A DNA stretch of 64,000 nt from Raillietiella orientalis (GCA_036172245.1 JAYWIR010000003.1:1364001-1428000), one strand, 5' to 3'. Positions 7,210 to 63,583 are shown, numbered from the stretch's first letter. Notes: generated from the letters alone by a model not told the origin. Translations and numbers: made by a program.

Positions 7210-8650
7210 CAACAACCGACCCGATTGTCATATGAAATGACCCTTGAGATTTTTCAGCCACCCACGGAAGCTAGTTCGTATGGCCCGAGGGCAAATCGAT
7301 GAATTACTCCCAGGCAACCCTGTGGCTCGCGTTGTTTCCCGGCGAGCGCGGCAGACAGAGGAAACCATCCGTGCAAAAAACTCTGACACCCCAGCTCCCC
7401 AGTTTCGTCACCCTAGAATCCAGTGAGACTTTCAGTATGGCCTCTGGGAACCCCTGGAGACTCCTACCCCAACTGCAGCACGTTTTCACGTAAACTTCCC
7501 CTGCAGAGGTCCCATCAGGTTGATATTTCTCCGGCCAAAAGATAACAAGACGCGGTCTCCTCCTCGGACTCATAGTCACCGTGGTGAAGGGAAGCAGCTG
7601 GATGTTTCGTTGCCCCGGCTGGCTGGAAAAAACAGTTGGCAAGTGGGAGAAGCTGAACGAGCCTAACTCCGAAGAATAGAACTGCCTGCGACTCTGCATC
7701 AGCATCTGCTGCTCTCGTCGGAAGATTCTGGAGTGTCCCAGTAGGAGCGAGTGGGTAAAGCTGCCCCTCCCGCCTTGCCACATATCTTCCCTCCCTGAGC
7801 GAGGCGAATGGTAGCAGCCAACCAGCAAGTTGGGAAGCCTCCTGCGAGATCCAAGACAGGGGGAAGTTGATGAGTGGAGGATGTTGCGACCCCAATTGCC
7901 CTTCCCCGAGGACTTGCCAGCTGGGGACAGCTGCGCGGTATCCTTAAGGAAGAGCTAAAGTGCTCCCGGTGCTCGCAGGCGGCAGCGCTCTCCTCTTGAA
8001 GTGGCAGGAGTCGGTATTTCCGCTGTTGCACCGGGGTCTTCCCTGCAACTCCCGCCGACACCGCTGAAAGCTGGTGAGTGCGAGCCCGGACTGCCACAGG
8101 TGAGAGGAACGGGAATCCTTCACGCATCTGCTTGTGCTGTCTTCCATCCTCGATGGGAACGTTTGAGAACGAGCTGCAAGCCCCGGTTGGCACCCCCAGA
8201 GACCTTGTAAAATTCCTCTTCACACGGGATGCCCTGCAGCATCCTCAGCAGATCTTCGCTGCATCCGTGGGCTCGTGGCAGCTTGGAGCGACGCTCGAGG
8301 AGCACTGAACGAGAGGGACGCCATCGGGTGGACACTTTGCTTTCTGCGGATAGAGGCCAGATGACCCCAGCTGTGTGCAATCCGGACCGACCTAGTTCTC
8401 TGAATCGTTTCCAGGATGCAGAGGATGCTCTCCAGAGGACAGTGCATCCTTCTTGGCTCTTCACAGTGTTTTTATTTATTTTTCTTCTGTTTCCCTCTCC
8501 CCTTGCTGCTGAGGTGGACCTCACTGGTCTGCGGGTAGGCAATCCGGCAGATCCATGGAGAAACAGTGTAGTAGCACCACATGTCCCAACACAACCTACG
8601 AGTTCATTTTAAATTATAATGAACGCCGCGGCACGTCCGAGTGGAAATCA
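7210..8650 (+). mobile_element. 5'-truncated family-A L1/Tx1-like LINE (zf-RVT end, 3'UTR)
   Basis: Frameshifted LLKWQESVFPLLHRGLPCNSRRH...CIRGLVAAWSDARG..ERDAI. T-rich tract, 3'UTR stem (8506-8550) and terminal AATGAA-cgc-CGCGG-cacgt-CCGAG-TGGAAA (8618-8647). 5' limit approximate. Confidence 0.75.
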
Positions 8651-8657
8651 AATAGAT

Positions 8658-9300
8658 GTTGCGACACGGGGTCGTGAGGGGGTGTTCATTGTTGGCCACA
8701 GCAGCAAGGTGAACATTAAGTTAAAAATAAAGAAAATAGAAGGACGGAGAGCGAGAAAGAAGAAGGATGGAGGGCTGGTTCCTGCCAAAGGTCGATCAAC
8801 TCTGGATGGACTGGCAAGCCAGGTGATCTTCCGGCGAGGTCAACCCCGAGGTAGGAAGGCAAGGGGTGCCAAGTGAAGAAATGCGAAAAAGGCACGCGGC
8901 TGTGTGTACCGGGGCGGAGCGAAGGAAGGAGGATCTCTGGGACTGCCCCGCATCCTGCGCAGGATGCTGGCAAGCCCTACCCTCCGATCTGCTAGGCGGC
9001 GACGCCTCGCTGCTCCCCTCAAGAGGCTGTGGCGGTAGTGGCTCTGCCGCCACGGAGGCAGCGGATGGCAGCGCGGGTGGCCGCCATCTCCGCTGCAGCG
9101 CAAGATGGGGGAGATACGCGCTTCTGCGCAAGTGCGCCACACGGTGGACGACCCCGACTCGGGAGCAGCGTGGCTGCCGGGTGTGCAGACACCTTCAGGG
9201 ACAGGGTGGGCTGCTTGCGGGAGCCGCAGGGGTCTGCCCGGCGTGGCAGTCGCTTGTGACAGGCACTCGAGGTCGCTGCGCCGGCCAAACAGATGTCACC
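8658..9300 (-). mobile_element. 5'-truncated family-A LINE, tail-to-tail with previous copy
   Basis: Minus strand AAIRCLRG...LASILRRMRGSPRDP matches the family-A C-terminus. Pyrimidine-rich 3'UTR and degenerate terminus AATGAACACCCC...CCGTGTCGCAA. Confidence 0.6.
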
Positions 9301-9309
9301 GCTCTCGGA

Positions 9310-9922
9310 TGCTTCAAGCGCTGTCCACGTCACCCCCGAGGGTGCGCGTGACTCTTCAAGTTAGATGAGGTAACCTCGGAGGGAGCACATGTAGGGAGGA
9401 AGGAGTCTGTTCCTCTTATGCTCGGGAGGGAACCCCGAAAGAAACTCTTTCCTTGTTCTCTTCGGAGCAACCCCCCGGAGGCGGTCTCTCTTACGGAGGG
9501 ATCCCCTGGAAAGGATCCACATTTTGTTTCCTCCTCTGGACGGAATCCCGCAGGGACGCTTCCCGAAGGGAGAAGCGCGCTTCGTCACACTCTGGAGAGG
9601 CATCAACCAGCTCCATGGTGAGTGATGGAGGGTCCTACCCCGGGGGAAGAAAGGTCCCATTTTCGCGACCGGAAGGGAACCCCGAAGGACTCCTTGATGT
9701 CGTGGAAGGCCCCCGGTTGATCAACTTCCAATCCCGGCTAGTCTACGGGGGCATCCGGGGGTTTCCGGCTTCAAGCAGTACTGCACCCGAATGGGCAAAC
9801 CAGTCATCTTGCTGGGAAGGAGGGACTCGGAACAAACACGACGCAACTCCTATTCTCGGAGCCGGTCCTTCCTCGGGCGGGATTCGAACCCGCGACGCTT
9901 TGTGCCTTGCGGGTTCCAATCC
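9310..9922 (-). mobile_element. tRNA-headed SINE, copy B (5' end folded back)
   Basis: Box B (plus-strand GGGATTCGAACCCGC, 9879-9893), core at ~9574-9635, 3' part GTGGACAGCGCTTGAAG on minus. Confidence 0.8.
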
Positions 9923-9959
9923 AACGGGGGCTTCCGGCATCTCATATGCCAGTATTGCA

Positions 9960-12329: not shown

Positions 12330-13145
12330 GCTAGCTGCTGGAAACCGCCTCTCCTCTCGGTTGCAAGGGACCACATCAATGGCCCGACTGGGTCCAGTGC
12401 GCCCCCTGGCAAACTCGCCGTCCCTCCCTCATATTCCAACACTTTTAATGTCCCCCTTCAGCTGGAGACAGGCAACGCTGCTGCTCCTGCACTGGGACCC
12501 CCAGATCAATCAGGGCCTGGACCTCACCTCCGGGAGGAGTTGCGTCCCCGACCTGCCGTTCCAGGGACGGCTCGCGCCCGCACCCGCTTTTGGACTGTGG
12601 GGTTCCCCACAGGCGGTGGCGACTCCCGCGACCTACTGCGCCGGTGCTTCGCGCACGGCAGACCCTGGACCGGACCGGTGATGGCGCCGCGTGCTCGAGG
12701 CGCAGACGCAAAGAAAGGAGTCGCCGTGACGAAAGTCAAGGCCTAAATGAGGATGGTGACTCACCCGGAAGAGGAAGCGAAGGCGGAGATCGGCGACGCT
12801 TTTAGAAGGAAGGAAACGTCCGAAACCGATGGCTCCAGTCCTCACCCTTCCCTGTTTATTTAGTCACTGTTATTTCCGGTCCGGAAATAACAGTGACTCC
12901 CGGTCCGAGCATTTCCCGCTGTCTAAGAAGGAACAGGAAAAGCCAATGACCCCTTCCCCACCTTCCGGCTTTCTGTTTGTATTTTTGCTTATCATCCTCT
13001 TCCACCCGTCCCCCGCTTCTGAAAAGACCGATCCGCGTGTCGGTGCACCCTCTTCTTGAACTTGTTATTTTGTGGGGAGAATCGGCGGTTCCCAACGCGT
13101 TTGTCCATTTTTCGAACAAGCGCCCCGGGGCGTGACGGGTGAAGA
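12330..13145 (+). mobile_element. 5'-truncated family-A LINE
   Basis: WRQATLLLLHW and LLDCG motifs, T-rich tract, hairpin ACCGAT-ccgcgt-GTCGGT (13027-13044), terminus AACAAGCGCCCCGGGGCGTGACGGGTGAAG. Confidence 0.65.
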
Positions 13146-14130: not shown

Positions 14131-14149
14131 CTGAATCTGCTAACCCCAG

Positions 14150-14660: not shown

Positions 14661-14679
14661 GTCGCGGGCTGCCGGCTCG

Positions 14680-15530: not shown

Positions 15531-16542
15531 CCTATCAGTACTTCTCAAACTACTATCTCTCTCAAACTTTCTGCTTTCAGCCCAAGTCTGAGTTTTCCAG
15601 AAGCGACAGCCTTAATGTAAGAGATACACTTCGGCGTTCGTAGGTCACTCTCGCTGACATCATCAGCATCTCTTCATGAGGACGCCTGCATCTTCACGGT
15701 GCAGTCGCTCAAGTTTTTGGGATCCTCTGGTCCCATAGTGTAAGCGCACGTTAGTGGTAGCCACCGCGCATACCACATTAACGAGTTCCTGAGCGACGTC
15801 GACCTCATGAAATTCCCTGCAGTTCAGGAAGATGAAGGTCGCGCTCAATAATTTCCGAACTCCCGACATGCGCGCGTGACCACCCCAGCTCCTGTAGACT
15901 GCCGTAGCGTGGGGTTCTCCAGCTCATGTGTTGACCTTGTCAGGACTGCGTGTGCCAAGTCCGCATGGGAGGAGCATCCTGTTCCTCCTCTGAGTGTTTT
16001 CCCTGCATTCTATCTTCTCCGGGAGAATCCGTTGTCTGCATTTTCGAGTTCACAGATTCGACCAGCTTCTGTATGTGTGTGTGTGTGTTTTTTTTTCTGG
16101 TAAAACTTGTTCAGCAGAAAAGCCTTCTCCATCCAGAAGTTGGATCTAGAAAATTCTAGGCGCGAAACTTTAATGCAGCGTAGATTCCATCAAATTTCTG
16201 CTTTCATCCCATCTTGCAGCAGCCATAGAAAATCGCTCTCCCGAGATAAGCGTAAAGCCGCTATTTGAGAATGGTAAGCAACAGTGCCAGGATTTGATCT
16301 GGAGATAGAATCTGGGAAGGATCCCAAGGAAGGACTTTTGGATTCGGAAGGATTCCGAATACAAAAGTCCATGCACCACATCTCTGAGAGGTGTTCTCAT
16401 GAGGACAAACTGGCTATAAAAGTTACTGGCCACTGTGATCCATAATCGAAGCAACGAATGTTTGAGGCTTTAAGAGTAACGGTTGCGTTGCTAACTTGCT
16501 GAGAACGAATTTCTTACTTTGCTGTTACACACACACGCGAAA

Positions 16543-17083
16543 TGTAGAAGGTGCGGAGCCGTGGAAACGCTCACGCACCTGCTCTTCGACTGCGGTGCCC
16601 TCCAAGAACTTTGGAGGAAGCTGTCTTCAGAGCTCCTGCACCTGGGGGACACCTCAACGGATTGAGCCGCTTCTTCACGCGACGTGGTCTTTCGTTAGAT
16701 GCGGTCGTCGCAACGATCTGTTGCATCCGCGGCATCGTTACGGTCCGCCGCTAGTTGGAGTCGCGGGCGGTTCCTAAAGAGGTCACCGAAATCGCCGACG
16801 TCAACATGAGGACGGCTGCCAGATGGCCTCATCTAGCGGAAGAAGCGAGGAAGAAGATCTCCGACATCCAACGTCGGTTCTGAAAGGATGGAACAGCCGA
16901 ACCCAAAGACCGCTGTCCCCAAAACTCCCCCTCCCATATCTTTTTGTTGTATTTTTTATGTATGTATTTGTGGTTTCCTCCCTCCCGTTCCGGACTCCTC
17001 CCTCCCTTCGAGCTTTTTTTTCCCTTTGTCTGGGAACTTTGTTCTCTTTTTGGAATAAGTGCCCCAGCTCACCCGGGTAGAAA
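16543..17083 (+). mobile_element. 5'-truncated family-A LINE inserted in a (CA/CG) microsatellite
   Basis: CRRCGAVETLTHLLFDCGALQELWRKL (zf-RVT), VVATICCIRGIV, RTAARWPHL..ISDIQRRF*. Terminus AATAAG-tgc-CCCAG-ctcac-CCGGG-TAGAAA. CACGCG lies on both sides. Confidence 0.85.
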
Positions 17084-19721: not shown

Positions 19722-20430
19722 GTACCCAGCGTTCTGGCAACCCTTTCCCCCCTCAAGTGGCAGGAGTCGGTGATTCTTCTGTTGCAGTGGGGCCTCCCGT
19801 GCAACGCCCGCCGACACCATTGGACTCAGGGGAGTGTCAACCCGAACTGCAAGTGCAGCGAGAGGGAGTCCCTCCCGCACCTGTTCATGGATTGCATTGT
19901 CCTCCTACCCCTGTGGAGACGCTTTGCCGCGTCCCTGCGGCTCCCCGAGGACAACCCGAGAAACCTCCTGAAGCGCCTCTTCCAGCGCGACGCGCTTCCG
20001 CCGGCCGCACCCCTAGCAGCACTTTTCTGCCCATGCGGCGGGACCGTGGCTGCATGGAGCAACTCCAGAGGAGGCCAGGACGACAGGGAGGCCATCCACT
20101 TTGCCGTCCTCTCCATGAGGATGGCTTCAAGATGGCTTCATCTGGAAACCTTTAAACAGGAAGTTGCCGGCATCCTTACGCCGTCCAGAATCTGGTGATC
20201 CCTTCCCGAACCCTCCCAGTTTTTTTTGTGTATCTATTTTTTTGTTTTTGTTTTTTTGTCTGCCTTCCCCCCGTCAAATGCCGAGGCGAACCTCACCGGC
20301 CTGCGCGCCGGTTCTCACCAGATTCCTTTAAGTATACTCATGACGTGGCAGGACCAAGCGTCCTGCTACTGACCGTCCTACTATGTTTTTTTTATATATA
20401 AATAAATGTTCCGGTGCAACCGAGTGTCAA
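19722..20430 (+). mobile_element. 5'-truncated family-A LINE (zf-RVT, structured 3'UTR)
   Basis: PLKWQESVILLLQWGLPCNARRHHW..NCKCSERESLPHLFMDC..MASRWLHL. 3'UTR hairpins; terminus AATAAA-tgt-TCCGG-tgcaa-CCGAG-TGTCAA. Degraded TSD ACCCATCATCG (19711-19721) / ACTCATCATCG (20430-20440). Confidence 0.9.
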
Positions 20431-28766: not shown

Positions 28767-29410
28767 TTTTTTTTTTTGTTCCTCAAGCGCTGAAGAACCG
28801 TTCTCCTCCTCGGGGAGGCTCACGAAGCTCTTCAGCATTGTCCACGTGCGTGAGTCCTCAAGCTAGAGGGCAAACCCGTAGGGACCACCCTACGGATCCA
28901 GGAAAGGCTCCGGAGAAAGAATTCCATTCCTCTAGCGCTTGGAAGGAAACCCCGAAGGGAACCAACCTCTTCCTTTTTCTTTCCAGAACGACTCCCCGGA
29001 AAGGATCCGCTCCTTGTTTTCCTTCTCTGAAGATAATCCGAAAGGACGCTTCCTAATTTCTCTGGAGGCAGCAGCGCGCTTCTTGATACTCTGGAGAGGC
29101 ATAACTAGTTCCATGGTACGCAATGGAGGATCTTCCCTTGAAGGAGGAGGACGGCTCCATTCTTACGGCCGGAGGGGAACCCCGAGGGACTCCTTGATGT
29201 TCTGGAAGGAACCCTGGAGGGTCGACTTTTAATCCCGGAGTACCCGTCGGGGACACTTGGTTTTCCTGCTTCCACCGGTAGCCACACCCGAAGCTTACAG
29301 GCCAACCAGTGTCATCTTGAGGCGCTTGGCATCTACCGTCCACGTGGGGATTCGAACCCGCAATGCCTGGCGCCATGCACGGGGAGACCGCAGCCACGCG
29401 ACCACCAACG
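28767..29410 (-). mobile_element. tRNA-headed SINE, copy C (best preserved ends)
   Basis: Minus head GTTGGTGGTCGCGTGGCTGCGG...GCGGGTTCGAATCCC with tRNA-like box A/B spacing. Core at ~29071-29135. 3' hairpin GTTCTTCA-gcgct-TGAGGAAC then an A run. Confidence 0.85.
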
Positions 29411-43447: not shown

Positions 43448-45030
43448 TTTATCACCCGGTCATGCAGAGACGTTTATTATCAAAATAAGAAACATCACGT
43501 GTAGGACCATCGACCATATATCGTCCGAAAGTATTCGGAGCCTGCCGAGTAACCAGCACGCAGACCGGCTAGTTTCGCCTCAGCAGCGGAGGGGCAAACA
43601 AAAATAAAAATCAATGATAAAAAATAATTCTGGGGGCACGGGAAGGGATCACTGTCCGCTGAAGGAAGTCCTCTGCATCCTTTCCAGGATGCTGGCAAGT
43701 TCCATCCGAATGCGGACAGCTAGCTTGACAGTCCAGGCACGGACCAGCTTGCTACCGTCCGCATGAAGCGCAGGGCGGAGCAGATGGCGTCCCTGTCGCG
43801 CTGTCCTCCTCCTCTCACGTAGCTCCAGGCCGCCACAACCCCGCGTAGGCAGCAGCAAAAAACTGCTGAGGATGCACCAGGCGAAAGGGCATCCCTCACG
43901 AAGAGGCGCTTCATCACGTCCCTGGGATTGTTTGTAGGTGCACCAAGGTCCGTTGCGTAACGAAACCACAGGGGCCGGACGGCAACACATTCCACAAGCA
44001 GGTGCCGTTCCCCGCACCTGCAACAGTTGGGCTTCACAGCCCCCGTGTCCACTGAGACAGGAGGAAGACCCCAATGCAACAACAGAAGTGCCGACTCCTG
44101 CCGCCGCAGACGGACTTTGTTCTTCAGCGCTGAGGGACCACTCGAGGTCTTCCTGTGAGATTCCCAACGGCTCTCAATAGTCCCTTCGGTGGGGCACTTC
44201 GAATCGCAGCGTCCGTGAGCTGGCCCGTGGTCCAACCACCCAATTCCTTCGTCCGAAGACTCATTTCTCAACTGACCTCCCATTTGTCCAGCTGGTTCCT
44301 GCCCAGGTGCTCCCTGAGGGCTAGGGAGGTTGCTTGTTCCCACGCACACGTGGTGGGCTGCACGATGACGTCCTGCAGCGAGTGATTCTTGCAGAAGGAG
44401 TGCAGCAGTCGCTGCCGCATCACCGTGCTCGCTTCGTTGTTCTTGGCCCACACGAGAAGGGTTTCCTGCAACCAGATACTACCGTTCGCGGATCCGCAGA
44501 AGATCCAGTTGTTGGTCCTGGTCAGCTTGGCCACTCTCCGGAGCTGCATTCCGCAGCGGGACACGTTGCGTCTGCACAGCCGTTCCAGGAACGAAGACAG
44601 TCCCGCGTAGCCGGTGGCTCGCTTGACCAGTTATCGTGCGGGTTCGCAACAGTTCGTGCTCCAAAACTTCGCCACTAGGGCAGGCGTCCTCCACTGGAGC
44701 TACCACTCCAGGCGTTCCAGTGTCAGGAAGCCGAGGCCTCCATCGAGACCGAAGCGCACAAGTCCTTCAGGCGGATTCGGGACCTCCCTGTTGCCCACAG
44801 GGAGATTCTCAGGAGGTCCCTTGTCCGGCTTTTAATGCTACTCGGTGAGGGGCACACAAAAAAGGGGGGGAGGAAGAGGGAGATCACGAACGTGTTTTAC
44901 ACCGAGGTCCGTTTCAGTAGGAAAAACTTGCCATCTTGGAACAGGTCGATCGCCGACTCTGCCTTCTGGGGCAGCTGGACCACGCCTCCGCCGGAGAATG
45001 GTCCCCCATCTAGTCTCCTGAGGCAAAATC
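43448..45030 (-). mobile_element. 5'-truncated family-A LINE (post-RT region to 3' end)
   Basis: GGLGFLTLERLEW, RQESALLLLHWGLP..NCCRCGERHLLVEC..RDAICSALRFMRT. 3'UTR stems 43542-43586. Terminus ...CCGGG-TGATAAA. Confidence 0.88.
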
Positions 45031-45054: not shown

Positions 45055-45815
45055 TTGGTGTTTTGCCCTGAAGAACTCTTGATTCCTCATCTTTGCACGG
45101 AGACCTCCGTGTTCCCTCTAGGCTGGAAACAGGATGTTCTGCTATTTCCGCATTGCGAATTCCAGTGCAGTCTGCGCAAACACCTGTTTCCAGGAGGGCT
45201 GCCTCCCGAACTGATCCTGGTGGCGGGCGATGGAATCGCTCCTACACCTCCTGCTGAACTGCAGTGCCCTGGAGGACTTGTGGCGGACTCGCTTCGGCGC
45301 TCCGACAACTGCAGTACACTGCAACGGACTTACTGCGACGGTTCTGCACAGCACAAGCTACTAAGGAAGGGCTCTGTGATAGCAGCAATCGGTTGTATTC
45401 GCGCCATAGTGACAGTCCGCCCACATGTTCGAGTCAGTTTCGCGGCGAAGACAGGTCACCAGTATGGCAGCAGTCCTCATGAAGACAGCAGCAAGGTGGC
45501 CTCATCTGCTAAAAAAATTCGCCAGGAAATCGCCACCATCTACAGACGATTCTAGAGAGGAAAGAACGTCTCATACCAAAGGCCCCTGTCCCCAGCCTCC
45601 CGTCTGTTTTTATTTATTTATTGTCCCCTCCCACCACTGTTCCCTACTTTTTGGAAGCCGGCTTGCATGCCAGTGGTTATCTCTGATGAAATCATCTTTT
45701 TTCTGGATTTTCTTGTTTTCTGAGGAGATACTCTTCTTCCCTTACTTCTTGTAGTTCATTTTTTAGAAACAAACGTTCAAAACAAACTTTCGAACCCGGC
45801 GTAACCGGATTCGAA
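45055..45815 (+). mobile_element. 5'-truncated family-A LINE, head-to-head with previous copy
   Basis: TSVFPLGWKQDVLLFPH, IAAIGCIRAIV, KTAARWPHL, IATIYRRF*. Terminus CCCGG-cgtaa-CCGGA-TTCGAA (~45796-45815). Confidence 0.8.
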
Positions 45816-47154: not shown

Positions 47155-47845
47155 AGTGCTCCTCCAGGCGCTGAAGAATTGTTCACCATCTTCGGCACTG
47201 TCCACGCCACCCGAGGGTTCTTGTGGTCCTCAAGCTAGAGGGAGAACCCGTAGGGATCACCCTACGAATCCACGAAAGGCTCAGGAGAAAAAATTCCATT
47301 TCTCTAGCGCTTGGAAGGAAACTTTGAAGGGAACTTCTCCCTTGCTCTCTTCGGAGGGGTCACCGAAGGTCATTTCTTTACCGAAGGGAACTTGGAAAGA
47401 ATCCGCAGCACCCGTGACCCTTCCAAATTTCTCTGGAGGGCTCTCCCGAAGGGAGCAGCGCGCTTCTTCACATTCTGGAGAGGCAACCTCCCTGAGGGGG
47501 AATCAACCAGCTCTATGGTACGCAACGGAGGGGTCCCCATGAGGGGGAGGGGGTCAGCTCCATTTTTACAACCGGAGGAAAACTCCTGGAATCGGCACTC
47601 CCTGGTTTCCTGGAAGGACGCGACGAAAGGTCAGCTTCCAATCCCGGCCGGTCAACGGGACATCCGGGGTTTCCGGCTTCCACCGGTACCGACCAGAGTC
47701 ATCTTGTAGGGGAGGTAGGAGGAGAGATTGTAAACCTCACGACGCACCCTCCCTTCTCGTGGTCGATCCTCCCACATGGGGATTCGAACCCGCTACGCTT
47801 TCTGCCACGCCGTGGTCTCGGCGCGCAGCCACACGCTTGCCGACG
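47155..47845 (-). mobile_element. tRNA-headed SINE, copy E
   Basis: Plus-strand GGGATTCGAACCCGC (~47779), core ~47455-47540, 3' hairpin TTCTTCA-gcgcc-TGGAGGA on minus. Confidence 0.8.
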
Positions 47846-49065: not shown

Positions 49066-50069
49066 AATTCTCACCCGGATAAACATATTATGGGAACTGT
49101 GGTTGGACCAATGGCCAAGCACGCACAATTTAAGGGAAGCCTGCCGGGTTACCGGTTCGCAGACCATCGCGGTCCACCACGGCAGCAGAGATAGTAGGGG
49201 AAGGGGGGTCAAACAAAAAAGAAAAAAAAGAAAATAAAAGTAAGAATAAATATACTCTGAGGGAAACGAGAAGGGATCACTGTCTGCTGCCGGCAGTTCT
49301 GTCCATCCTGCCGGCAAGGTCTAGTGGATATTGCTGTCCAAGTGTCCAAAGCGTTGCTATCCTATGAAAAGGACGGCGAAGTGGGTGGCATCCCCATCTC
49401 TGGGTCCTCCTCTTGCTTGCTCCGTGCAGCGACGACCCCGCGTAGGCAGCACAGGGCTGCTAACGAGGCCTCTGGACGAAGGGCCTTGCGAACGAAGAGG
49501 GGTTTCAAAGCGTCCCTGGAGTTGCCTCCAAGGGCTCCCAGGGCTGCAGCAAAGCGTTTCCAGAGGGGCCGGAGGGCAACACAGTCCACTAGCAGGTGCG
49601 AACGGATTTATGCTCCCCGCACCTGACGACAGTTCGGGTCCACACACACCTTCGTCCAGTGATGATGGCGGGCGTTGCACGGGAGATCCCAGTGCAGCAC
49701 CAACAGCGCTGACTGCTGCGTCTTAAGGGGGAGGATGCGGGTGTCCATGAGCACCGGAGGTCACTTCAGGTGTTCCGACGGAACATCTTGTAGCTCGTTA
49801 GCCCCAGCGCAAGAGTCCATGGGGCGGTGTACTCGGGGTCTCAGCGTCGGTGAGCTGGCCCGTGGAAGACGGAAGATTCCACACACTTTTTCCGGGATCC
49901 TCCAGGATCTCTAGGAGCGTGAATAGGTTGTTGCGCATGAACAGGAACCGGCGCACCTGTTCCGTGCATTGCTCCTGGACCCTCTCCCACGTGAGAACGG
50001 TTTCCTGTAACCAGGCACCACCCTTCGCGGAGTAGCAGGAGGTTTTCCTTAGGAGGTCTTTCGTCCGCT
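49066..50069 (-). mobile_element. 5'-truncated family-A LINE with 14-bp TSD
   Basis: DCVALRPLWKRFAAAL..AALCCLRGVVAA. 3'UTR stem CTGCCG..CGGCAG (49141-49185). Ends ATCCGGGTGAGAATT. TSD GAGAAGTTCGGATC at 49052-49065 and 50070-50083. Confidence 0.88.
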
Positions 50070-50372
50070 GAGAAGTTCGGATCGTGAGTATGGTCGACTT
50101 GCTTCCCGATCAAAGCAGGGACGGCGCGTTCCTCGAAGATCACCGGACCGGTGTGGCAGGTCGAATCTTGCCATCAGCAGGTGGATGTGGACCATCATCT
50201 CTGCAGTGCCGTGAAAAAGGATGAATTTCAGGAAAAAAAGCGAAACTTGAGATCGCTCCGAACTTTGGAAGCGGCTCGCAGAAATGCTCCTGAGGGAAGA
50301 GGACGTGCTCATCCCATTTTTTTTAATATTTTTTTGTAATAAAGGCCCCTGCGTGACCAAGTGAAAATAAAG

Positions 50373-51060
50373 GATCGACGCCGAGGAATGGGGGACACGT
50401 CGTGGGTGTCGAGTCCCTTCCCACTAATAGGGTGACGCTGGTTGGTCTGGTAGGCTTCGAGTGCTGTATTGGTGGAAGTCGGAAACCTCCGGATGCCCCT
50501 GTTGACTGGGCGGTATTGGGAAGCTGACTATCCAGGGTCCTTCCAGGAATCAAGGAGTCGCGTTTCCTTCGGTGTTCTGCTCCGTTTGTGCAAATGAAAC
50601 CGATCCACCCCCTTTCGAGGAGAGACCCTCCATCTCGCACCATGGAGCTGGTTGGCACCCCTCCAGAGTTTCCTTTCTGTCAAGAAGCACGCTATTCCCT
50701 TCGGGGAGAGGCCCTTCAGAGAAATCCGGAGCTCTCTTCAGAAGAGGATAAAAAGAGCGGATTCTTTCGGGGGATCCCTCCGTAGAAGAAGTGAGTAGTG
50801 CTTCCCCCCCACACTCACTCTGGGCAGTTCCTCCAAAGAGAGGTTGGTTCGCTCCGAGGTCCCTTTTGAAGACAACCAGGGAGGAGGGTTCCCTCCCAAG
50901 CGTGAGAGGAACAGACTTCTTTCCCCGGAGCTTTTCCTGGATTCATGAGGTGGTCCCTCCGGGGTCATCCCTAAATTGAAGTGCCACCCGCACCCTTGGG
51001 TGGCGTGGACAGCGTTGAAAAGCTCCATGGGAGCCCCCCTAGGGAGACGGTCCAATTCTC
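50373..51060 (+). mobile_element. tRNA-headed SINE, copy F (first head missing)
   Basis: Second box-B-like CGTGGGTGTCGAGTCCC (50401), core ~50625-50695, GTGGACAGCGTTGAA (51005). Confidence 0.75.
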
Positions 51061-51189
51061 TCGACTCTCTCAAAACAGATGGAAACGAAAGAGCGAAACG
51101 GGAGAAGACCTTAAAGGATTTCCATCATCTGAATTTTTCCCCACTTGCCTCAGTTCTGCCCTCCCTAGCGGACACAAGGGGCAGCGTGA

Positions 51190-52077
51190 ACCCGGCAAGG
51201 TGGCAAGTGAAGAAGAAACTTCCGGAGGGGTGGACAACTCGGGAAGTGACGGATGCTGAGACCCCGAGTGTCCCACCCCAACGACATGTAAGCTGGGAAA
51301 AGCTACTCGGCACCCTCCGGAGGAGGTGAGATGGCCCCCAGCGTGCTGGAACAGTGACCCCCTTTCTCCCTCAAGCGGCAGGAGTCTGCATTGCTGGTGT
51401 TGCCGGGGGAATCCCGTGCGAAGCACGCCTTCGCCAATGGACACAGGGAGGGAGAGTGGACGCTCAGAGTGCGGCAGACGAGGGAAGAAGGAGACCCTCT
51501 CGCACCTGCTGTTGTACTGTGCTCCCTCCGACGACCCCTTTGGGATCGCCTTGCGACGATCCTAGGATCCCGGCGGGTGGCCCCCAGGGACATTTTCAAA
51601 CGTCTCTTCGTGCGTGGTGCCTCACTGTCGCCGGTCGCGTCCCTCGCAGTCCTCTTCTGCGTTCTCAGAATCGTGGCAGCTTGGAACGCAAGAAGAGGCC
51701 AGAATGGCAGTGACACCATCCACTGGTCGCGGATCTTCCTGAAGACTACCACGAGATGGCTCCAGCTGGGCGCTATATGGACAGAACTTGCCAGCATCCT
51801 GGACAGAGGACTGAGACTGGGACAGAGGATGCAGAGGACGTCTGGCAACGTACCGCTATCCCATCCTCGATCCCCCCTCCCTTTCCCGTATAAAATCTCC
51901 ACTCCTCCGTTTTGTTTGTTCATTTTTCCGTGTGTGTTTCGTTTTCCCTTCCTCCCACTCTGCCAAAGTGGACCTCGCCGGTCTGCGCGCCGCACCCTGG
52001 CAAGTTCATTGCGTGTGTCCGTCTGTCCACACTAATATATTTTTATTGCTCTATGCCCAGGCAGAACCGGGTGAAAA
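51190..52077 (+). mobile_element. 5'-truncated family-A LINE
   Basis: ETLSHLLLYC, RDIFKRLFVRG..VLFCVLRIVAAWN..DTIHW..ELASILDR. 3'UTR hairpin 51979-51992. Terminus CCAGG-cagaa-CCGGG-TGAAAA. Confidence 0.88.
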
Positions 52078-55767: not shown

Positions 55768-55860
55768 CCTTCTTCTTCTTCTACTTCTTCTTCTACCACT
55801 ACTACTTCTTCTACCACTGTTTCTGCTTCCGCTGCTTCCACTTCTACTTTTTTACTTCTA
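55768..55860. repeat. Imperfect (CTT/CTA/CCA)n trinucleotide tract
   Basis: cttcttcttcttctacttcttcttctaccactactacttcttctacc... Confidence 0.8.
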
Positions 55861-55869
55861 TTTCTTTCT

Positions 55870-56512
55870 TTTTGGTTTTCTAAATACTTAAGAACTCAAG
55901 ATCTTCTCGCCTAGGATCTCACGAAGCTCTTTAACGCTGTCCACTCCACCCGAGCGCGCGTGTGGAGGGAAAGCAGTTATAGGGGGTACCGCCCTATGAA
56001 TCCAGGAAGGCTCTGCAGGAAGGAGTCCGTCCCTCTTACGCAGGGGAGGGGACCCTGAAGGAAACCACCTCTTCCTCGTTCTCTCCAGAGGCCTCCCGGA
56101 AAGGATCCGCTCCTGGAATTTCTTCTCCGGAGGGAACCCAAAAGAGGTTCCCTCCTCTGAAGAGAGCTCTGGATGGACGCCCCTGGAGAGAGCAGCGCAC
56201 TTCTTCACACTCTGGAGAATGAACCAGCTCCACGGTACGCAATGCAGGGTCTCTCCACGAAGGAAAGGAACCGCCTCCCCGGAAGGTCAGCTATCGATCT
56301 CGGACGGTCAGCGGCGGCATCCGGGGGTTCCCGGTTTCCACTGGTGGCGCGTCCGAAGCCTGAGGACCAGCCGACACCATCCTGCAGGGGGACTCGGAAC
56401 TCACAACGCACCTCCTATTTCTGTACCTTCAACCCTCCTCCTCGCAGGGATTGGAATCCACAACGCTTAGTGCCGCACGCGGAGACCGCCGCAGCCACAC
56501 TGCCGCCAGCGC
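55870..56512 (-). mobile_element. tRNA-headed SINE, copy G
   Basis: Plus-strand GGGATTGGAATCCAC (~56447), head block GGAGACCGCCGCAGCCAC shared with A and C, core ~56192-56255. Confidence 0.78.
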
Positions 56513-56889
56513 TTCGGAGGTTTGCTGATAGACCGTTGTTCGTTTTCATCATAGGTACAGGTTCGTCCAAAAGTTTTGTGGCTACATTAGGGTCTTGTGG
56601 TGCAAAAGTGTTCGTCCATTTCCACAGTGTATTCGTTCGGTCTGGGGAGGGGTGCTGGAATTCCGACCACAGTGGAGGCAGCTGATTGAGGCTGGATGCC
56701 CAGGCGTGCGCCCGACTGTGCGTCTGCTGGCACCTACCACGCGCCCTGCTTCGGTGCAGGGTCCCCTCGGGTTCCTCGCAGAACTCCATCGCTTCCGGGA
56801 TCCTAGGAACCTCGTGAGTCCTCCGCTAACACTCGTTTCCCCAAGTCCCACAAGGGGTGGGGTGAATTTATTTTCTTTGATCATTTACT

Positions 56890-59800
56890 CTAGGTATTCT
56901 TGCATTCGTCTTCTCCAATCATTGCACTTATGTCTCCTGGGATTATCACTGAGATCCACTACACTTAAGGAACTGTGCTTCGTTTATGCTTAGACGTTGT
57001 CCTCAATCCTTCTCAGGATATGTCGGTAGTTCCAGGCCTGTACTCTTCCACAGTTTCTTATGCCGATCTCCTTCTGGGTAAGCCCTTTCAGGATTTCCAT
57101 TGGAGATTCCATTGGAGATATGGTCTTGATCCTCCACCACCGCACATGGATGGCGGTGATGAAGAGAGCGATGTTCATCCTTACCATGGGATCTAAAAAT
57201 TCCCATGGTCGATGTTGTGGGCAGCCCGATTACCCTTCTGAGGGTGTTCCACTCTTGTTGCATAGTGGGGCAGTGAAGACGTGGAGTCTTGTATTCTTGT
57301 CTCCACATGCTGAGCAGGCCTCATCTTCTCTTGTTCCCGTGAATAGCTTCATGGCTGTCCCGCACAGGATTCCTCCATGATAAAACATCAGGAAGTTATC
57401 CTGTGTGTCCGGTGGCAATTCACTCCTCCGGAGCGTCGTTCCGATCGCCAACAGGTTTATCCTAGCACTCCCGTGGCCATGGGCGTCTTCTTAGAGGCCA
57501 CTGCTGTCTTTGACCTCTTCGACTAGTGGTCGGCATAGGTTTTTCTTTGTTACCCTGGACCACACGAAGTTGTATTTTTTCCACGCTTCGCGAGTCCTGT
57601 GGGTGAATCTTCCAGCTATCCTGTCAATGTATCGGAGTACTTGGGAGTGGTGGAGGTACTCTCCTCGTCTCCATGCTTGAGCTACTTGCAAGGTTACCCT
57701 GGACCGCTCGTGGATCCAGTTCTCCGTATCCGGAGGTACCGGGAGCATTCACGGGATCACCAGGATGGATTCCTCCTGCCAGAGTTCCTTTCTCCCTGGT
57801 ATGATCTTCAGCTGGCGCTTGTGTACCAGCTGTTGCTTTCTTCTCCAGGTTGGGTCGATGGTCCCCCATTTACCCACTCGGACTAGAAGCTCAGTCATCA
57901 GTCCTCTCGAGTTATTTATCAACAACGATTTAGCCCTGTGCGCTGCATACGACCAGTCTTCCCAGTTTTTCGACATGTCCAGGAGTTGTCGCACGTCCAT
58001 GGTATCCGCAGCGTGTGCAAGCGACTTCATCCTGGTACCGCCTTCCTACTTAGGACACATTGGTTTGAGGCGGGATCTCGGTCGATAGCCTCCCCACCTC
58101 TCTTCTGGTGTCTTGATGCATTCTGCAGAAGGCCGCTCTGAAGAGTATCTCTGGAAGGAATACTCCGTTCCAAAGGTTGGCCCTCCGCTTCATGCTAAAG
58201 TCCAAACGGGTATACTTTGCTCCTTCTTGAGCTTTCCCCAAGATTTCCTTCCACAATAGTTGGGACGACGAATTGTCGCCAATGTGGACACCCAAGTACT
58301 TGGTGTTGTCCATTGTTCGGAATCCTTCCTCCATTAGTATGGAGAGATCCAGGATCCCCACGGCAAAAGTTGGCTTCTCTGGGCATTGATTTTCAAGCCC
58401 AATCCTTCTTCCATAAGCTCCAGCACATCCAGAAACGTACGCTGATCTCTCTCCCCTTTCAGGAAGAAGAGAAGATCATCCGCGTAAGCCAGATGGGTGA
58501 GCCATTGATTGCCGACAGTGATTCCAGTCACTTCTCTCGATGAATGAAGAGAGGGCCTCCATGTATATGACGAACAGCATCGGACTGAGAGCGTCTCCTT
58601 GGCGGACTCCTCGTTCCATCCGGATGGCTGCTGTCTCTTCCCCATTAATCTTTATCCGAAAGCGTTGCTCTTCAAGTATCATCTTCACAAAGTTGCTGAA
58701 TTGTTCCAGGAGTCTTTCTAGAATCTTCAGCAGCATCCCATGGTCCATCGTATCGAAAGCTTTCTCCATGTCAGTGAAACCCAGTATCAAGTTCTCGCCG
58801 ATATATCGGCTGAGACCAATGGTAGCCTGGGTACACTTGACATTGTCCGACATGTGGCGTACGGTCACTGAGCATGTCTGGATGGGAGAGATGAGCTGTG
58901 GCATGACCTTGCCTAATCTTTCACCCGGGTAAGCCGGGGTTTTTATTATTAAAAAACATTTTTACAATTAGTAATTGCTGTCGTCTGTATTTGTGTTCCT
59001 GTCAGAACACATTGTTCTTATTTTCTTATGCACTTGTCCTTTCCGACTTGTATGCCGGTAAGGCCTTCTCCACTGGCGAAGGGGATGAGAAAAAGAGGAA
59101 AAAAAAAAATTTTTAACGCTTGGGGGACAATGTTTATGGGGAGGGGAGGGAAGGGAAGGGATCACGGTTCGCCGAGGGGAGGCCTCTGCATCCTGTTCTG
59201 GAACAGGTGCTGGCAGGCACTTCTTCGCATCGCAAATTTTACTTAGCCGGCGCCAACGGGAAGCCTTCTCCATGGAGATGACTGCCCAGTGGATGGCATT
59301 CCGACTACTGCGGCCTCTTATTGACGCGTTCCACTTGTCCAATATTCCCCGTATGCAGCAGAGAACTGCAGCACACGCGGCACCTGGCAGGGAGTTCCTC
59401 ATCAAGAGGCAATAGATAGGTTAGCCCTTGGCTAACCTTGCCTAATAGGTTAGCCCAGATCTTTGCTAACCACTTGGCACCGCTGTCCAGGATTGAGATT
59501 GGCCTCCATTGGGTAACCTTAGTCAGGTCACCTCCTTTCGGTAACAATCTCATCCTGCTCTAGTAGAAGGATGCAGGTAGTCGTCCTTCTTGTTGGATGC
59601 AGAGCGTCAGCTGATGGAACAAACGTCGGTAGGCATGCAAGTACCGCTGATAGTGAGAGATAGGGACACTATCAGGGCGCGCCGCTACATCCTTGCAAAG
59701 TTCCACAAACGTAGCTTTCACTTCTTCAGAGATTTCCTCTTCAAGCATCTTCCGATGGTTTTCACACGTTCGTCGTTCCAGATGTCGCAGAAAAATTCCT

Positions 59801-60906
59801 TGATTACTCGGGCACAGATGTCTTCGTCGGAAGTGCACCACGTAATGCCTCTGGAAGGCGTCCGCGATGTCGTCCGACGTGTGCCGACTGTGGCCATCAT
59901 ACTGGATGCAGATGTCTGTTGCTAGATTCTTCTCCAGCACGACGACTTCCCCTTTCACATTTTGGAAGATGTACCGACTCTCGTATTGTTCCCAGTACTT
60001 CGAGAGGGAGCGATCTTGGATGTGCAGCTCCCGGTACGCTTCCTGCCTCAGTCGCTTGTCACTGAACTGCATGTTGCAGAACAGGTGGACTCGATGTTTC
60101 AAGCTATCCCGGTCGGCGACTGCGGATACTGGTCGTCTGCAGAATCGTCTCTATAACTTCTTGATGGCAGGGTAGCGTTTCGAACCAGGCGGGCATGCTG
60201 ATGAGCGCCGCCCTCGTGGCCTTCTTTCGCCGAGGGTTTTCAGTCCGCAGGGAAAACCTCACCAGCGGGTGATCGGACAGCAATGCGGGCGAGTCACGAA
60301 ACCCGTGGATACGGTTCCCTATATCGGAGCTGTAGAGGACGTGGTCGATCGGCTTGTAGCTGGCTGTTAGCCACAGCAGCCCGAACACGTCGAACAGCCG
60401 CCGATACGCCGTCCTGCATCTGGAGTCTTGGGAATGGATGATTTCGTACAGGATGTTGAAATCCCTCACGATGATCACGATGTCCTTTGATGCAACCTTT
60501 TGTCGGAGTGTTCCGTGGATCACTTCCGCACACTGATGTTTTTGGTGGTGTGGTCCGTATACGTTCATCAAGAACAGGTGAACATTTGCGGGCCAGGACA
60601 TTCGTATGCCGACGATTCTTCCCGGCATGGGACAGAAGACTTCCAGGATTGCGGGGGCCAGCTCGTGCTTCACCAGTACTGCCACTCCTTCTGTTTCCTC
60701 TGTCCCTCACTGGCGGACAGTTTTGTGTTCAATCGCCGTTCCATGTCGAGGCTGATTTGTTGCCTCATCACATGGGTTTCTTGAAGGCACTATATCTTGA
60801 TTTGCGATGGTTCGCACAATCCTTTTTCGCTTTGCCTGGTCGGTAAGTCTATTAACATTCCAGGAGCGATGTTGATCCTCCTGACGGTGGACAAGGACGA
60901 GGCCAT
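56890..60906 (-). pseudogene. LINE ORF2: APE endonuclease, reverse transcriptase, zf-RVT; frameshifted and interrupted
   Basis: APE: INIA.WNVN, VAVLVK, NVYGP, RDFN, IDHVLY, SDH. RT: LLPKGGDL..WRPISILD, DMEKAFD, GVRQGDALSPMLF, LAYADD, KYLGV. zf-RVT: CSACGDKNTRLHVFTAPLC. Confidence 0.93.
58918..59434 (-). mobile_element. Family-A 3' fragment inserted in the family-B RT, 12-bp TSD
   Basis: AVLCCIRGILDKWN..NAIHWAVISMEKASRWRRL. Terminus AATAAA-aac-CCCGG-cttac-CCGGG-TGAAAG. TSD ACCTTGCCTAAT at 58906-58917 and 59435-59446; removing the insert restores ..ANLLGKV-MPQLISP. Confidence 0.92.
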
Positions 60907-60915
60907 AAAGGGAAT

Positions 60916-62518
60916 TTATTTTTTAGCCTTTCGGAGTTTCTTCTGCCGAGGAGACCGCTGCTGCCTCTGCGCAGAAGGTTTCTCGTTACCAGCATCGCTT
61001 TTCGTTTCGGTGAAGTCAATGAGTTCTTCCTCCTCCGTCGGGTTTCCTGCTTCCACGATCACTTTGCGTGGGAGCCTCTCCAGGCCCACTGTCTCACAGA
61101 AGTTCGACTTGATGTTGAGAAGCTTGTCTTGCAGCTTGTTCCATCCACCACATTATTTATGTCCTCCTGAACCTTGGAGATGCGTTGCAGGAGTTTCCCA
61201 TGCTCCTCTCCTCTGGTTCCCGGTTGGACCTCTCCATTCAGCTTCGCCACTTTCGCGTTGATTTGCAGGGTTTCCTGAGTTTCCGGGACAGGCTCGACTG
61301 TTTCCATTTTCTCTTCTGCTTTTTCCTCGGGCTTGTCGAAGACCTGCTATTCCCCAGCGAGCATCCTCCTCTTCCCCTTTTTCCTCACTTCCATGAAGCC
61401 GTCCTCCGATATTGGGACGACCTCCCTTACCCTTTCCACCTTCACGGTGATTTTTTGCGGCTGTTCCGCCTCCCTCTGGGGTTTCTCGTACGAGTGAGAG
61501 CCCGCGCATGGTACGCCAGTTGGCGTATTCCGGGCAGCTCCACCTCGCGTGGCCCGTTGCCTTACAGAAGGCACACACTTCAGGTTGGTTGCAAGACCGG
61601 ATCTGGTGTTCCTGCTTGCCACAGCGGAAGCACCGAGATCCTGGACAAGCACTGACCCTGTGGCCAAAGTGCTTGCAACCCGTGCGAAATGTAGGCTGCT
61701 GCCTATATCGTATGGAGACTTCCTGGGAATCCCCATCGATATGGGCTAGTCCTGGAATCTTTGCATCTTCAAATAACCTGATCTTGGCGATGGCATTGCC
61801 GGAGAACACCTTTCCGGAGTAGTTCCGGAATTCCACATCTATAACTTTCCCGCACTTGGTGAGGAAACTCCACACCGCTTGTTTATTTGTTGTCACGCTG
61901 ACTCCTCCAAGAAACACCGTCGTATACGGCATTTCGCCAATTCCGCGGACCATCCTCCCTTGTATATTCATGCCCCTTTCGATCAGGACCTCGATGAGGG
62001 GTTCACTGTCCGTGTAGACTGTGAACCCCGTCGTGCTCGGTATGATCGCTTGTACGTGGTCAAAGTCTACATTCTCTTTATAGAGGGCCAAATACACATC
62101 TTTGATATTGTTTATCCTGATGAGTCCTGTTTTGAATGTGATCGGCTTCACATTTGGACCGATCCTCACGATCGGCTCATCCACATTCTCGATTTTGCCG
62201 ACTTTCGGCTTTCCAAATGTTCGTGGTGGAGCGTTGGAATTTCCGGTTGCCACCGCCGCGTAAGAAAATGGCCGCGCCGTTGCAGCCGAACAACATGGCG
62301 TCGCGGCCTTCGAGCTCCCCGCTACTTGGAAGGTCGTAGGCTGCGATGCCAGCGCCGTCGCGTAGGCGACACGTGGCGACGCTGCACATTCTCCGGACGC
62401 TACCTCCATCGGCTGGGGTGACGTCGGCGTGTCCTCCAACTCCCCTTGCATCCTTGCGGAGGACTGTCGCCGTGGCGGAATGCAAGTCCTCCACTGTGGT
62501 GTCGCTGCTGCTGGTCAT
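60916..62518 (-). pseudogene. LINE ORF1, Gag-like nucleic-acid-binding protein (RRM-like region, CCHC knuckles), frameshifted
   Basis: CKHFGHRVSAC, CFRCGKQEHQIRSC and CAFCKATGHARWSC in ORF 61153-62451. Continues via frameshifts to ...KKLRKAKK* at ~60916. Confidence 0.88.
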
Positions 62519-63453
62519 TGTCCTCAGCTGTACTGCACTCTCACTTCCCAGTGGGTAGGATTTATTAAAGAAATAAATGGATTATAAAATACAAATAGGC
62601 ACAAAGCACGCGAGCGCCGTGTCTAGTATGCACTGTTTGCGCTCGCCAAGCCGCTGCAGGGGAGTGCAGCTTCCGCCAGCATTGGAGCAGATGTCGGCAC
62701 TCCTTCCTGCAGCACCTCCCACCCCACCCCCTTTATTCCTAGTTCTCCCGGAATACGCAGGAACCGCTGCTTCGCCTCACCGGGGGGCATCAGAGTAGCT
62801 CGACAACGACAAAGCTCACAAACGAGATTTCCCACCTCAAGGCACCAGCAGTCCAGCTGAAGCGGGGAAGGGAAGCGAACGTCTCGAATCTCCGGCCGCC
62901 GACGCGAGCGCCTCCTAACAATGCGCACTCGAAGCCTCGGCCACCCCAGCGTCATCTCGCAGATGGACTCGAAACCCCACGACGCGTCCAACTCGTCGGC
63001 GCCGATGCTCACGGGATCGCCGGCAACCCCACACCTTTGAGACCTGGACTCGCGGTCTCCTTTCTCCTCCCCCGCCTCTGCGCCCCTGGAATCCGCCCCT
63101 GATCTCCTGTAGGAACAGCAAACATTCAGGGTGACGACCCTGAAACTCTTCCGAAGTGCCGGATCCGGTCCCCAAGCTTCGAGTAAGCTCCCGGGCAACG
63201 CCCGTCACGAAACGAGAACGTAGCCTGCCGGCCCGATTGCGGGAGGATCCAACCCCTTTTTCGTCGGGTCCGTCCTCCTCTAAGGCTGACGCCCCCCACA
63301 CCATCCTGGATGCCCTCGCGAAAAGGAGAGTCGTCACTGCCGGTTCTGAGACTCCCCGATGGGCTCCCACAGACATCTCCAGGACCCGACGGACTTGAGG
63401 GTCTCTGGAGGAAGGAAGGGAAGGGAGAGGATCCTTCGAATTATTCCCCCCTT

Positions 63454-63583
63454 CCCCGCGGCTGCTCTTCAGGCAGGTCCGGTGTTGTGCGGCCGTTAGT
63501 GGGGCCTCGTACCACGTATTTGTAGAATTTATCAATAAACGCCCCGGGCGTACTCGGGTGGCAACCCCGCGGCTGCTCTTCAG
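63454..63583 (+). mobile_element. 92-bp LINE 3'-terminus insertion with 19-bp TSD
   Basis: Perfect repeat CCCCGCGGCTGCTCTTCAG (63454-63472 and 63565-63583) flanks a 92-bp insert ending AATAAA-cgc-CCCGGG-cgta-CTCGGG-TGGCAA. Confidence 0.85.

Follow-up and report, generated by a model that had tools for sequence, protein, structure and literature searches.

An analysis of a 64,000-nt stretch of the Raillietiella orientalis genome (GCA_036172245.1 JAYWIR010000003.1:1364001-1428000; this whole stretch is referred to as the window, and all coordinates are those of the window) indicates the presence of a family of long interspersed nuclear elements (LINEs) whose copies end in a short conserved module, composed of AATAAA, a GC-rich palindrome, and TG, instead of a poly(A) tail. 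The module lies inside the target-site duplications (TSDs) of the copies and is the true 3' terminus of the family. We estimate at roughly 0.5 the probability that CCCGG-N5-CCGGG-UG in this encoded 3' terminus is recognized by the reverse transcriptase (RT) of the element, with an initiation of stringent type that does not involve the annealing of an A tail.

Sequence and conservation of the terminal module

The first-pass annotation of the window claimed that at least 11 diverged copies end in AATAAA, a palindrome, and TG. Inspection of each of its 12 listed sites confirmed this count, as the sequence AATAAA(-like)-N2-4-CCCGG-N5-CCGGG-TG could be read at 11 of them. The layout of these 11 sites comprises AATAAA or its one-off variant (AATGAA at 8618, AACAAG at 13116, AATAAG at 17054), 2-4 nt, a 5-nt arm, a loop of 5-6 nt, a second 5-nt arm, and TG, which is replaced by TA at site 17054. 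The remaining site, 52056, has both arms and TG and lacks AATAAA. Stems are perfect at 34089-34105(+), 58922-58938(-), and 63543-63560(+; 6-nt loop, one G-U), and have 1-3 unpaired positions each at the other sites. A T-rich stretch is present upstream of AATAAA.

The full arrangement of AATAAA, stem, and TG occurs in the window above chance: a scan allowing at most one mismatch in the stem, and requiring at least three GC pairs and a loop of 4-7 nt, detected 8 loci, whereas 100 dinucleotide shuffles averaged 0.33 and never exceeded 2. The palindrome alone (CCCGGN5CCGGG, at most one mismatch) is not clearly enriched (10 occurrences vs. 4.41 expected, a number reached in 3 of 100 shuffles).

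Within the module, the frequency of the majority base is 0.83 in the 5' arm, 0.85 in the 3' arm, and 0.92 in TG, vs. 0.57 in the loop and 0.53 upstream; among the 17 columns of hairpin and TG, those with the lowest conservation are the five of the loop. The earlier description of a variable loop with the stem geometry and TG retained is consistent with these values. In a MAFFT alignment of the last 520 nt of the copies, analyzed in 23 windows, the best-kept window is that of the terminal 30 columns (0.60 pairwise identity vs. 0.35-0.59 elsewhere), and the 3' untranslated region (UTR) windows that adjoin it have an identity of 0.35-0.49. The motif might nevertheless have no special function and simply represent the inherited end of one family, with the contrast between arms and loop resulting from chance or mutational bias. 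The homology of copies upstream of the module, which extends over at least 600 nt at 57-72% identity and is collinear with other copies at 11 of 16 candidate ends (sensitive blastn, 670 nt upstream), the terminal window little better kept than other blocks, and the small sample of 12-13 copies would all agree with such an origin. It does not explain why variation is concentrated in the five loop columns, or why the terminal window is the best of the 23 although identity drops in the adjoining 3' UTR, and we regard it as very unlikely. Our initial notion of a conserved island in unrelated UTRs, based on a fixed-register comparison, was withdrawn, as blastn and MAFFT show that the 3' UTRs are homologous.

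A second conserved block, GGTCTGCG..CGG..GCAGRYTCC, is common to 7 copies, in which it precedes the element end by about 100-130 nt (e.g., 8528-8560, the region of 20321-20350, and 43530-43560(-)). Its outer parts are able to pair, GGUCUGC with GCAGAUC.

Insertion boundaries and tails

Exact TSDs bound four copies (92, 517, 1004, and 4201 bp long inside the TSDs), namely, 63473-63564 (19 bp), 49066-50069 (14 bp), 30244-34444 (13 bp), and 58918-59434 (12 bp). The tails that separate TG from the TSD in these copies are GCAA (twice), AAAG, and AGAATT, i.e., 4-6 nt, with 0-3 terminal A residues. A fifth, weaker TSD, an 11-bp repeat, bounds the copy 7891-8654(+), the tail of which is 11 nt long (GAAATCAAATA). 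Exact repeats of at least 12 bp were found at 4 of 13 motif ends vs. 1.9% of 2000 random positions in the same search. The element end is thus placed 4-6 nt, and once 11 nt, after TG, which bears out the claim that TSD-bounded copies fix the end close to the stem without a long A tail. Within the 12 nt that follow TG, A runs reach at most 7 (site 34080) in 13 copies, with a median longest run of 3. With this limit of A runs and with only 4-6 nt between TG and the TSD, the copies do not show the poly(A) ends of mammalian and most plant L1 elements and of the SINEU partners of Tx1, while the presence of TSDs of variable length around 5'-truncated copies is a feature of LINEs with an AP-like endonuclease (APE).

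The five TSD-bounded insertions are located in unrelated surrounding sequences and have no A tails. Their target sites show no T/A-rich consensus, and the primer ends at the nick (..GGGG, ..GGCG, ..TAAT, and ..GATC) are not complementary to an A tail. That the module is part of the insert and not of the target site follows from the organization of a copy nested in the best-kept member of the family, designated by us as element B. A profile of the second open reading frame (ORF2), derived from 39 full-length database relatives and run over all six-frame ORFs, shows that the nested copy interrupts the element B RT exactly at its own TSD: profile positions 515-555 map to 59553-59434 and positions 550-682 to 58922-58530, and the overlap corresponds to the TSD.

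Could the copies have once possessed poly(A) tails that decay or slippage later removed? The old age of the copies (60-72% pairwise identity) and the A-rich sequence of some tails (A7 at 34080, AAAATAAA at 50338) would be expected in this case. However, perfect TSDs of 19, 14, 13, and 12 bp are found in combination with tails of 4-6 nt between TG and the TSD, and four intact TSDs make a clean fourfold loss of tails unlikely. We consider such a loss extremely improbable.

Coding regions and relationships of the family

A Pfam search with 113 ORFs of at least 145 aa matched only three families: RVT_1 at 58479-58961(-) (E 2.4e-10), Exo_endo_phos at 60107-60706(-) (E 2.4e-4), and zf-RVT at 37641-38174(+) (E 2.1e-4, with 22.3 bits being under the curated cut-off of 27.5). 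The ORF2 profile maps remnants in the window that are ordered from the APE through the RT to the C-terminus, and in which YADD, SDH, and CX2CX7HX4C motifs are readable. The location of the AP-like endonuclease N-terminally to the RT in ORF2 is that of APE-type LINEs. Downstream of each of the seven matches to the C-terminal part of the profile (3 significant, 4 weak), the module or its variant occurs on the same strand at a distance of 435-550 nt; in the case of the 37724 copy, the distance was measured after discounting a 0.9-kb insertion.

In element B, the profile matches are ordered from position 9 to 1140. Its ORF1 is open and encodes 453 aa with three CX2CX4HX4C (CCHC) knuckles. This product matches no Pfam family at E <=0.001 and gives weak zinc-finger hints at E 0.07-0.11. 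The Atlas clusters nearest to it are those of ZCCHC3-like RBD+CCHC proteins (score 0.94), which may serve as a lead only. The idea that ZCCHC3 derives from a LINE ORF1 is not borne out by the accessible part of PMC10351740 and was dropped. A search for TSDs of element B yielded only an 8-mer, which is at chance level, and the ends of this element are not fixed by a TSD. Judging from the sequence features of its members, the family is one old, diverged LINE family, with an ORF1 carrying CCHC knuckles and an ORF2 carrying APE, RT (YADD), and CX2CX7HX4C.

A 161-aa RT piece of the window matches ORF2 proteins at about 38-39% identity at most. In most ORF2 relatives longer than ~1000 aa, RVT_1 is accompanied by zf-RVT, Exo_endo_phos, or both, and the Atlas annotation of the relatives is 'RNA-directed DNA polymerase'. 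The profile of the relatives matches full-length human L1 ORF2p in a single stretch (positions 3-1227 vs. 7-1240; E 1.4e-195, as compared to 4e-53 in the case of R2), which indirectly supports the membership of the family in the L1-like group.

Metagenome relatives were represented by the best 80 of 536 candidate loci that encode an ORF2 relative (418,391 nt). A tRNA-like module (GGTAGGCGGGGTTCGATTCCCCGGCG) is conserved in the 3' UTRs of the relatives L007, L008, L036, and L017, about 300-450 nt after the ORF2 match. A motif scan of prokaryote contigs indicated at least 120 bacterial loci; among the matches listed, none is similar to the LINE 3' regions, and we regard these loci as chance or terminator-like matches.

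Possible recognition of the RNA end

In the transcript of the element, AAUAAA would be located 3 nt before the GC palindrome, and about 24-26 nt would separate the signal from the terminal base of the element. Cleavage normally takes place at about such a distance after AAUAAA, so that the RNA probably ends at this base. The terminal module is probably read by the RT that the element itself encodes, most simply as a 5-bp hairpin. Target-primed reverse transcription would then begin at the final templated bases or adjacent to them, with no A tail annealed to the nick, and the initiation would be of stringent type, as in L2, R2, and SART1. The short tails (4-6 nt), none of which is an A run, and the nick sites without T runs argue for such a start.

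The potential of the module to form a hairpin is indicated by the consensus arms, which are exact reverse complements separated by a free loop. Of 59 stem cells, 47 (80%) are paired, as compared to 49-56% after a one-column shift of the partner. At stem position 2, U-A and U-G occur once each. The data thus show a terminal motif that is conserved in sequence and has the potential to form a hairpin; the RNA hairpin itself is putative.

Several results weigh against the recognition of a hairpin by the RT. The covariation in the stem of 12-13 secure copies is not significant, with 1 compensatory cell of 59 and with the observed measures reached by 84-300 of 500 shuffles; a lack of significant covariation had been named in the first-pass annotation as an outcome that would contradict its proposal, and this is what the window shows. 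The 3'-arm variant CCGAG/CCAAG, with A at position 4, is paired by its partner in 1 of 4 copies. The z-scores of the minimum free energy (MFE) are +0.19, -1.62, and -0.20 for the three perfect tails, and are equal to or below -2 in only 2 of 15 folded tails. RNAalifold, applied to 12 tails, predicts a shifted helix of YGCCC with GGGUG (-1.14 kcal/mol, covariation term 0). The terminal window is barely better kept than coding blocks (0.60 vs. 0.56-0.59), and, since the copies are all members of a single family, the similarity of the modules in part reflects plain common descent. In the 3' region of element B (56885-56825(-)), AATAAA is followed by a different and longer hairpin (CCCCA..UGGGG) and then by ..CGAGTG. 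The 161-aa RT piece of the window prefers R2 (9.6e-11) over L1 ORF2p (1.8e-7) in PDB, which is why the L1-like placement is an indirect one. The module was found at the element 3' end in none of the 80 metagenome loci (the scan gave 3 plus-strand and 3 minus-strand matches elsewhere), and some of these relatives end in A runs (L044, L048, and L074); with no motif at the 3' ends of these 80 loci, the tail is specific to the lineage of the R. orientalis window. No short interspersed nuclear element (SINE) that shares the tail occurs within the 64-kb window, although a stretch of 64 kb does not suffice to dismiss a partner. Finally, all copies in the window are old and dead, with none being young, and the whole interpretation is drawn from DNA sequence. 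The proposal of the first-pass annotation, namely, that a terminal hairpin serves RT recognition or 3' end formation, is therefore upheld as regards a true LINE 3' end inside the TSDs and the lack of poly(A), and is not supported by covariation, folding energy, or RNAalifold as regards the hairpin.

An apparent covariation in a set of 14 sites (0 of 500 shuffles) rested on one doubtful site, 62542, and disappeared without it. CpG decay was also rejected as the source of stem mismatches, since it fits about 2-3 of about 15 changes, and the observed/expected ratio of CpG is 0.89.

The above results could also be explained if ORF2p, ORF1p, or a host factor bound a primary-sequence site, CCCGG..CCGGGTG or YGCCC..GGGUG, and not the hairpin as such. 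The arms are retained by sequence rather than by compensatory change, RNAalifold favors another register while folding z-scores are ordinary, and the proposed hairpin leaves unpaired the T and the G that follow the stem, which are invariant and near-invariant, respectively. Such a site would not, however, require arms that are exact reverse complements around a free loop, a loss of pairing from 80% to 49-56% on a one-column slide, or the single U-A and U-G pairs at stem position 2. We find this explanation unlikely.

Alternatively, the U-rich stretch, AAUAAA, GC hairpin, and cleavage site may constitute a compact unit of 3'-end formation that is not read by the RT. The hairpin would then aid cleavage or termination, or protect the end, and short tails would result from an RT start at the first poly(A) residues. 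This explanation, which we hold to be rather unlikely, is consistent with the occurrence of AATAAA or its one-off variant at 11 of 12 sites downstream of a T-rich stretch, with the element end about 24-26 nt after the signal, and with the tails GCAA and TCAA, which end in CA-A like a cleavage site, other tails being A-rich. It is at variance with the 0-3 terminal A residues of the four TSD-bounded copies, as poly(A)-primed reverse transcription normally leaves long A tails, with the nick-site primers, which are not T-rich, and with a predicted base pairing, in 8 of 12 copies, between the AAUAAA zone and the upstream U run, which would hide the poly(A) signal.

This pairing of the AAUAAA zone with a U-rich run upstream is present in the MFE structures and sums to 65 nt, vs. 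41.2 +/- 9.4 nt with the upstream sequence shuffled (a value reached in 5 of 400 shuffles). The pairing regions are located about 30 nt upstream of AATAAA (e.g., 8604-8629, 39258-39278, 58940-58961(-), and 62558-62581(-)), and at site 8618 the variant AAUGAAC is predicted to pair with GUUCAUU. Instead of, or in addition to, acting as a poly(A) signal, AAUAAA might serve as the 3' strand of an AU helix with the U run, stacked on the GC hairpin, and the resulting two-helix end might guide an L1-related RT to a defined base 4-6 nt downstream, without an A tail or complementarity to the nick. This model seems quite unlikely to us. If true, it would imply that templates are selected within the L1 group in the manner of R2 and L2, and that RNA 3' ends are formed independently of polyadenylation.

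Copies of the family and other repeats in the window

The features of the family in the window are listed below.

Table 1. LINE copies, terminal modules, and doubtful modules in the R. orientalis window.
Feature	Position	Strand	Details
5'-truncated LINE copy	7891-8654	+	Module 8618-8647, AATGAA-CGC-CGCGG-CACGT-CCGAG-TG; tail GAAATCAAATA; 11-bp TSD GATGTTGCGAC; upstream collinear with other copies
LINE terminal module	13116-13144	+	AACAAG..CCCGG/GGGCGTGA/CGGG-TG; tail AAGAA; upstream homology to 49066 and 34080 copies
ORF2 C-terminal remnant (CRRCGAVETLTHLLFDC), 3' UTR, and module	16525-17083	+	Module 17054-17083; profile positions 1120-1159 at 16525-16644, E 1.2e-6
ORF2 C-terminal remnant, 3' UTR, and module	19748-20430	+	Module 20401-20430; stem TCCGG/CCGAG; tail TCAAC
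4.2-kb (4201 bp) copy	30244-34444	-	APE N-terminal and RT remnants; module 30244-30271; tail GCAA; exact 13-bp TSD CGCCCAGTTCTTG
5'-truncated copy	33534-34112	+	72% identical to 16538-17083; perfect module 34080-34105, then A7
Copy with zf-RVT remnant	37724-39300	+	~0.9-kb inverted-repeat insertion at 38324-39220; module 39272-39300, CTCGG/CCAAG
5'-truncated copy	43448-44055	-	Module 43448-43478, CTCTG/CCGGG; tail ATAAA
Doubtful extra module	45795-45811	+	CCCGG-CGTAA-CCGGA-TT; end of copy related to 17054 and 34080; overlaps T-arm-like GGGTTCGAATCC on minus strand
1.0-kb (1004 bp) copy	49066-50069	-	Exact 14-bp TSD GATCCGAACTTCTC; 5' arm lost, CCGGG-TG remains; tail AGAATT
Terminal module	50338-50370	+	CCCTG/CCAAG; tail AAAATAAA; abuts cut copy of repeat family X; upstream LINE homology not detected
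5'-truncated copy	51365-52077	+	Arms and TG 52057-52073, CCAGG/CCGGG; AATAAA absent; tail AAAA
Element B, best-kept copy	56825-62514	-	ORF1 62514-61156; APE 60865-60107; RT 59901-58092 (YADD), split by nested copy; zinc-finger remnant 57337-57272
517-bp copy nested in RT of element B	58918-59434	-	Perfect module 58922-58947; tail AAAG; 12-bp TSD ATTAGGCAAGGT
Doubtful extra module	62536-62574 (stem 62542-62558)	-	AATAAA-TC-CTACC-CACTG-GGAAG-TG; ~25 nt upstream of element B ORF1; no LINE homology upstream
92-bp copy	63473-63564	+	Exact 19-bp TSD CCCCGCGGCTGCTCTTCAG; module with 6-nt loop; tail GCAA

The plus-strand fragment 33534-34112 sits within the minus-strand copy 30244-34444. The doubtful module at 62536-62574(-) resembles a LINE 3' end, with a T-rich run, AATAAA, a 5-bp stem of other bases, and TG; it could be a chance match or reflect the insertion of one element immediately after the 3' end of another.

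The copies 19748-20430 and 37724-38323 + 39221-39300 are 96.8% identical over 600 bp and 76% identical over the last 85 nt, the hairpin included, and the break in identity coincides with the insertion site in the latter copy. Gene conversion or partial duplication is a possible source of this pattern. The insertion itself (38324-39220, about 0.9 kb), which lies in the 3' UTR of this LINE copy, has inverted arms at 38347-38667 and 39188-38862 that are 86% identical, and looks like a foldback element or one similar to miniature inverted-repeat transposable elements (MITE-like).

Repeat family X comprises at least 6 copies of about 0.8 kb each, with a mutual identity of 66-78%. Minus-strand bodies are located at about 1799-2471, 9313-9906, 28854-29359, 47198-47806, and 55914-56459, with T-arm-like motifs at 2463, 9891, 29359, 47791, and 56459, and a plus-strand copy at about 50368-51040. 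The tRNA T-arm-like GGGTTCGAATCCC near one end and the A-rich run near the other suggest that family X may be a tRNA-derived SINE-like retroposon. It is the only SINE-like family seen in the window (with a tRNA-like head) and does not contain the LINE module. Its use as a control for A-tail survival was given up, as its A run may be internal. ARAGORN (tRNA) and Rfam scans of the window, family X included, gave no matches, and a dinoflagellate spliced-leader motif had no match in the window either.

The GC content of the window is 0.51-0.64 per 4 kb (about 55% overall), and the window is crowded with decayed LINE pieces. TpA is strongly depleted (observed/expected 0.48), CpG is near normal (0.89), and homopolymer runs of A or T that are at least 8 nt long number 29.

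Comparison with known systems

L1-related LINEs with a specific 3' module are already known, and the marking of the 3' end in the window family is real, but not unprecedented. Monocot L1 elements of the '1a' lineage (LINE1-1_ZM group) and Chlamydomonas L1-1_CR have conserved 3' ends with a stem-loop that shows compensatory changes, partner SINEs, and poly(A) ends (Ohshima 2012, PMC3472496), and these ends have been read as a sign of specific RT recognition of the template end (PMC3472496; the accessible part of Ohshima 2013, PMC3747384). The window family shares with them an L1-like ORF2 and a conserved 3' terminus of about 30-50 nt, in which a potential stem-loop is directly followed on its 3' side by conserved bases. 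Judging from the text descriptions, it differs from them by the lack of poly(A), of a partner SINE in the window, and of significant covariation, as well as by AATAAA that abuts the stem. Green-algal L1 families have other 3' repeats in 8 of 15 cases and none in 5 of 15 (Ohshima 2012, PMC3472496, Table 1). Like those of the window family, their copies do not end in an A tail, while a terminal hairpin module is not described for them in the text of PMC3472496, and the window family has no terminal short tandem repeat. In view of the L1-clade 3' stem-loops and algal L1 elements without A tails in print (PMC3472496), the statement of the first-pass annotation that the module is unusual for an L1-like element was overstated.

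Eel UnaL2 and zebrafish ZfL2 of the L2 clade, SART1 of the R1 clade, and R2 are similar to the window family in a terminal stem-loop near the 3' end, which in the window family is a potential one only, in a short non-A tail, and in initiation without A-tail annealing, which in the window family is a probable one (PMC3472496; the accessible parts of PMC3747384 and PMC4176376). UnaL2 ends in (TGTAA)n repeats, which are believed to permit slippage, and SART1 requires poly(A) (both cited in PMC3472496 and in the accessible part of PMC3747384). Those elements belong to different RT clades. The window family has no repeats and has AAUAAA beside the stem. With the Tx1 group, the window family shares an L1-related ORF2 and CCHC knuckles in ORF1; ORF1 variants with such knuckles are said to be consistent with this group in the part of Ivancevic 2016 available to us (PMC5203782). 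However, according to the accessible part of Kojima 2015 (PMC4494074), Tx1 elements are target-specific and the SINEU families partnered with Tx1 have 3' poly(A) tails, in contrast to the five TSD-bounded insertions of the window, which lie in unrelated sequences and have no A tails. In the 3' UTR of human L1, a conserved stem-loop has been proposed to be used in retrotransposition, but human L1, unlike the window family, cannot do without poly(A), and this stem-loop is not at the very terminus (PMC5135761, in the part available).

The exact combination of AAUAAA abutting a 5-bp GC palindrome, invariant UG, and a 4-6 nt tail, with no A run and no terminal repeats, was not found described in the literature searched, Repbase and Dfam entries being outside that search. 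The present evidence is a modest addition, as it concerns a known kind of system, the structure is unproven, and the copies in the window are dead. If the RT of the window family does read the module, the family would provide a further and rather clean L1-related case of initiation at a defined motif without any A tail, with a very small (about 30 nt) candidate recognition element. It would also bear on the question of whether the ancestor of the L1 group had stringent 3' recognition, which mammals and flowering plants then relaxed separately (PMC3472496).

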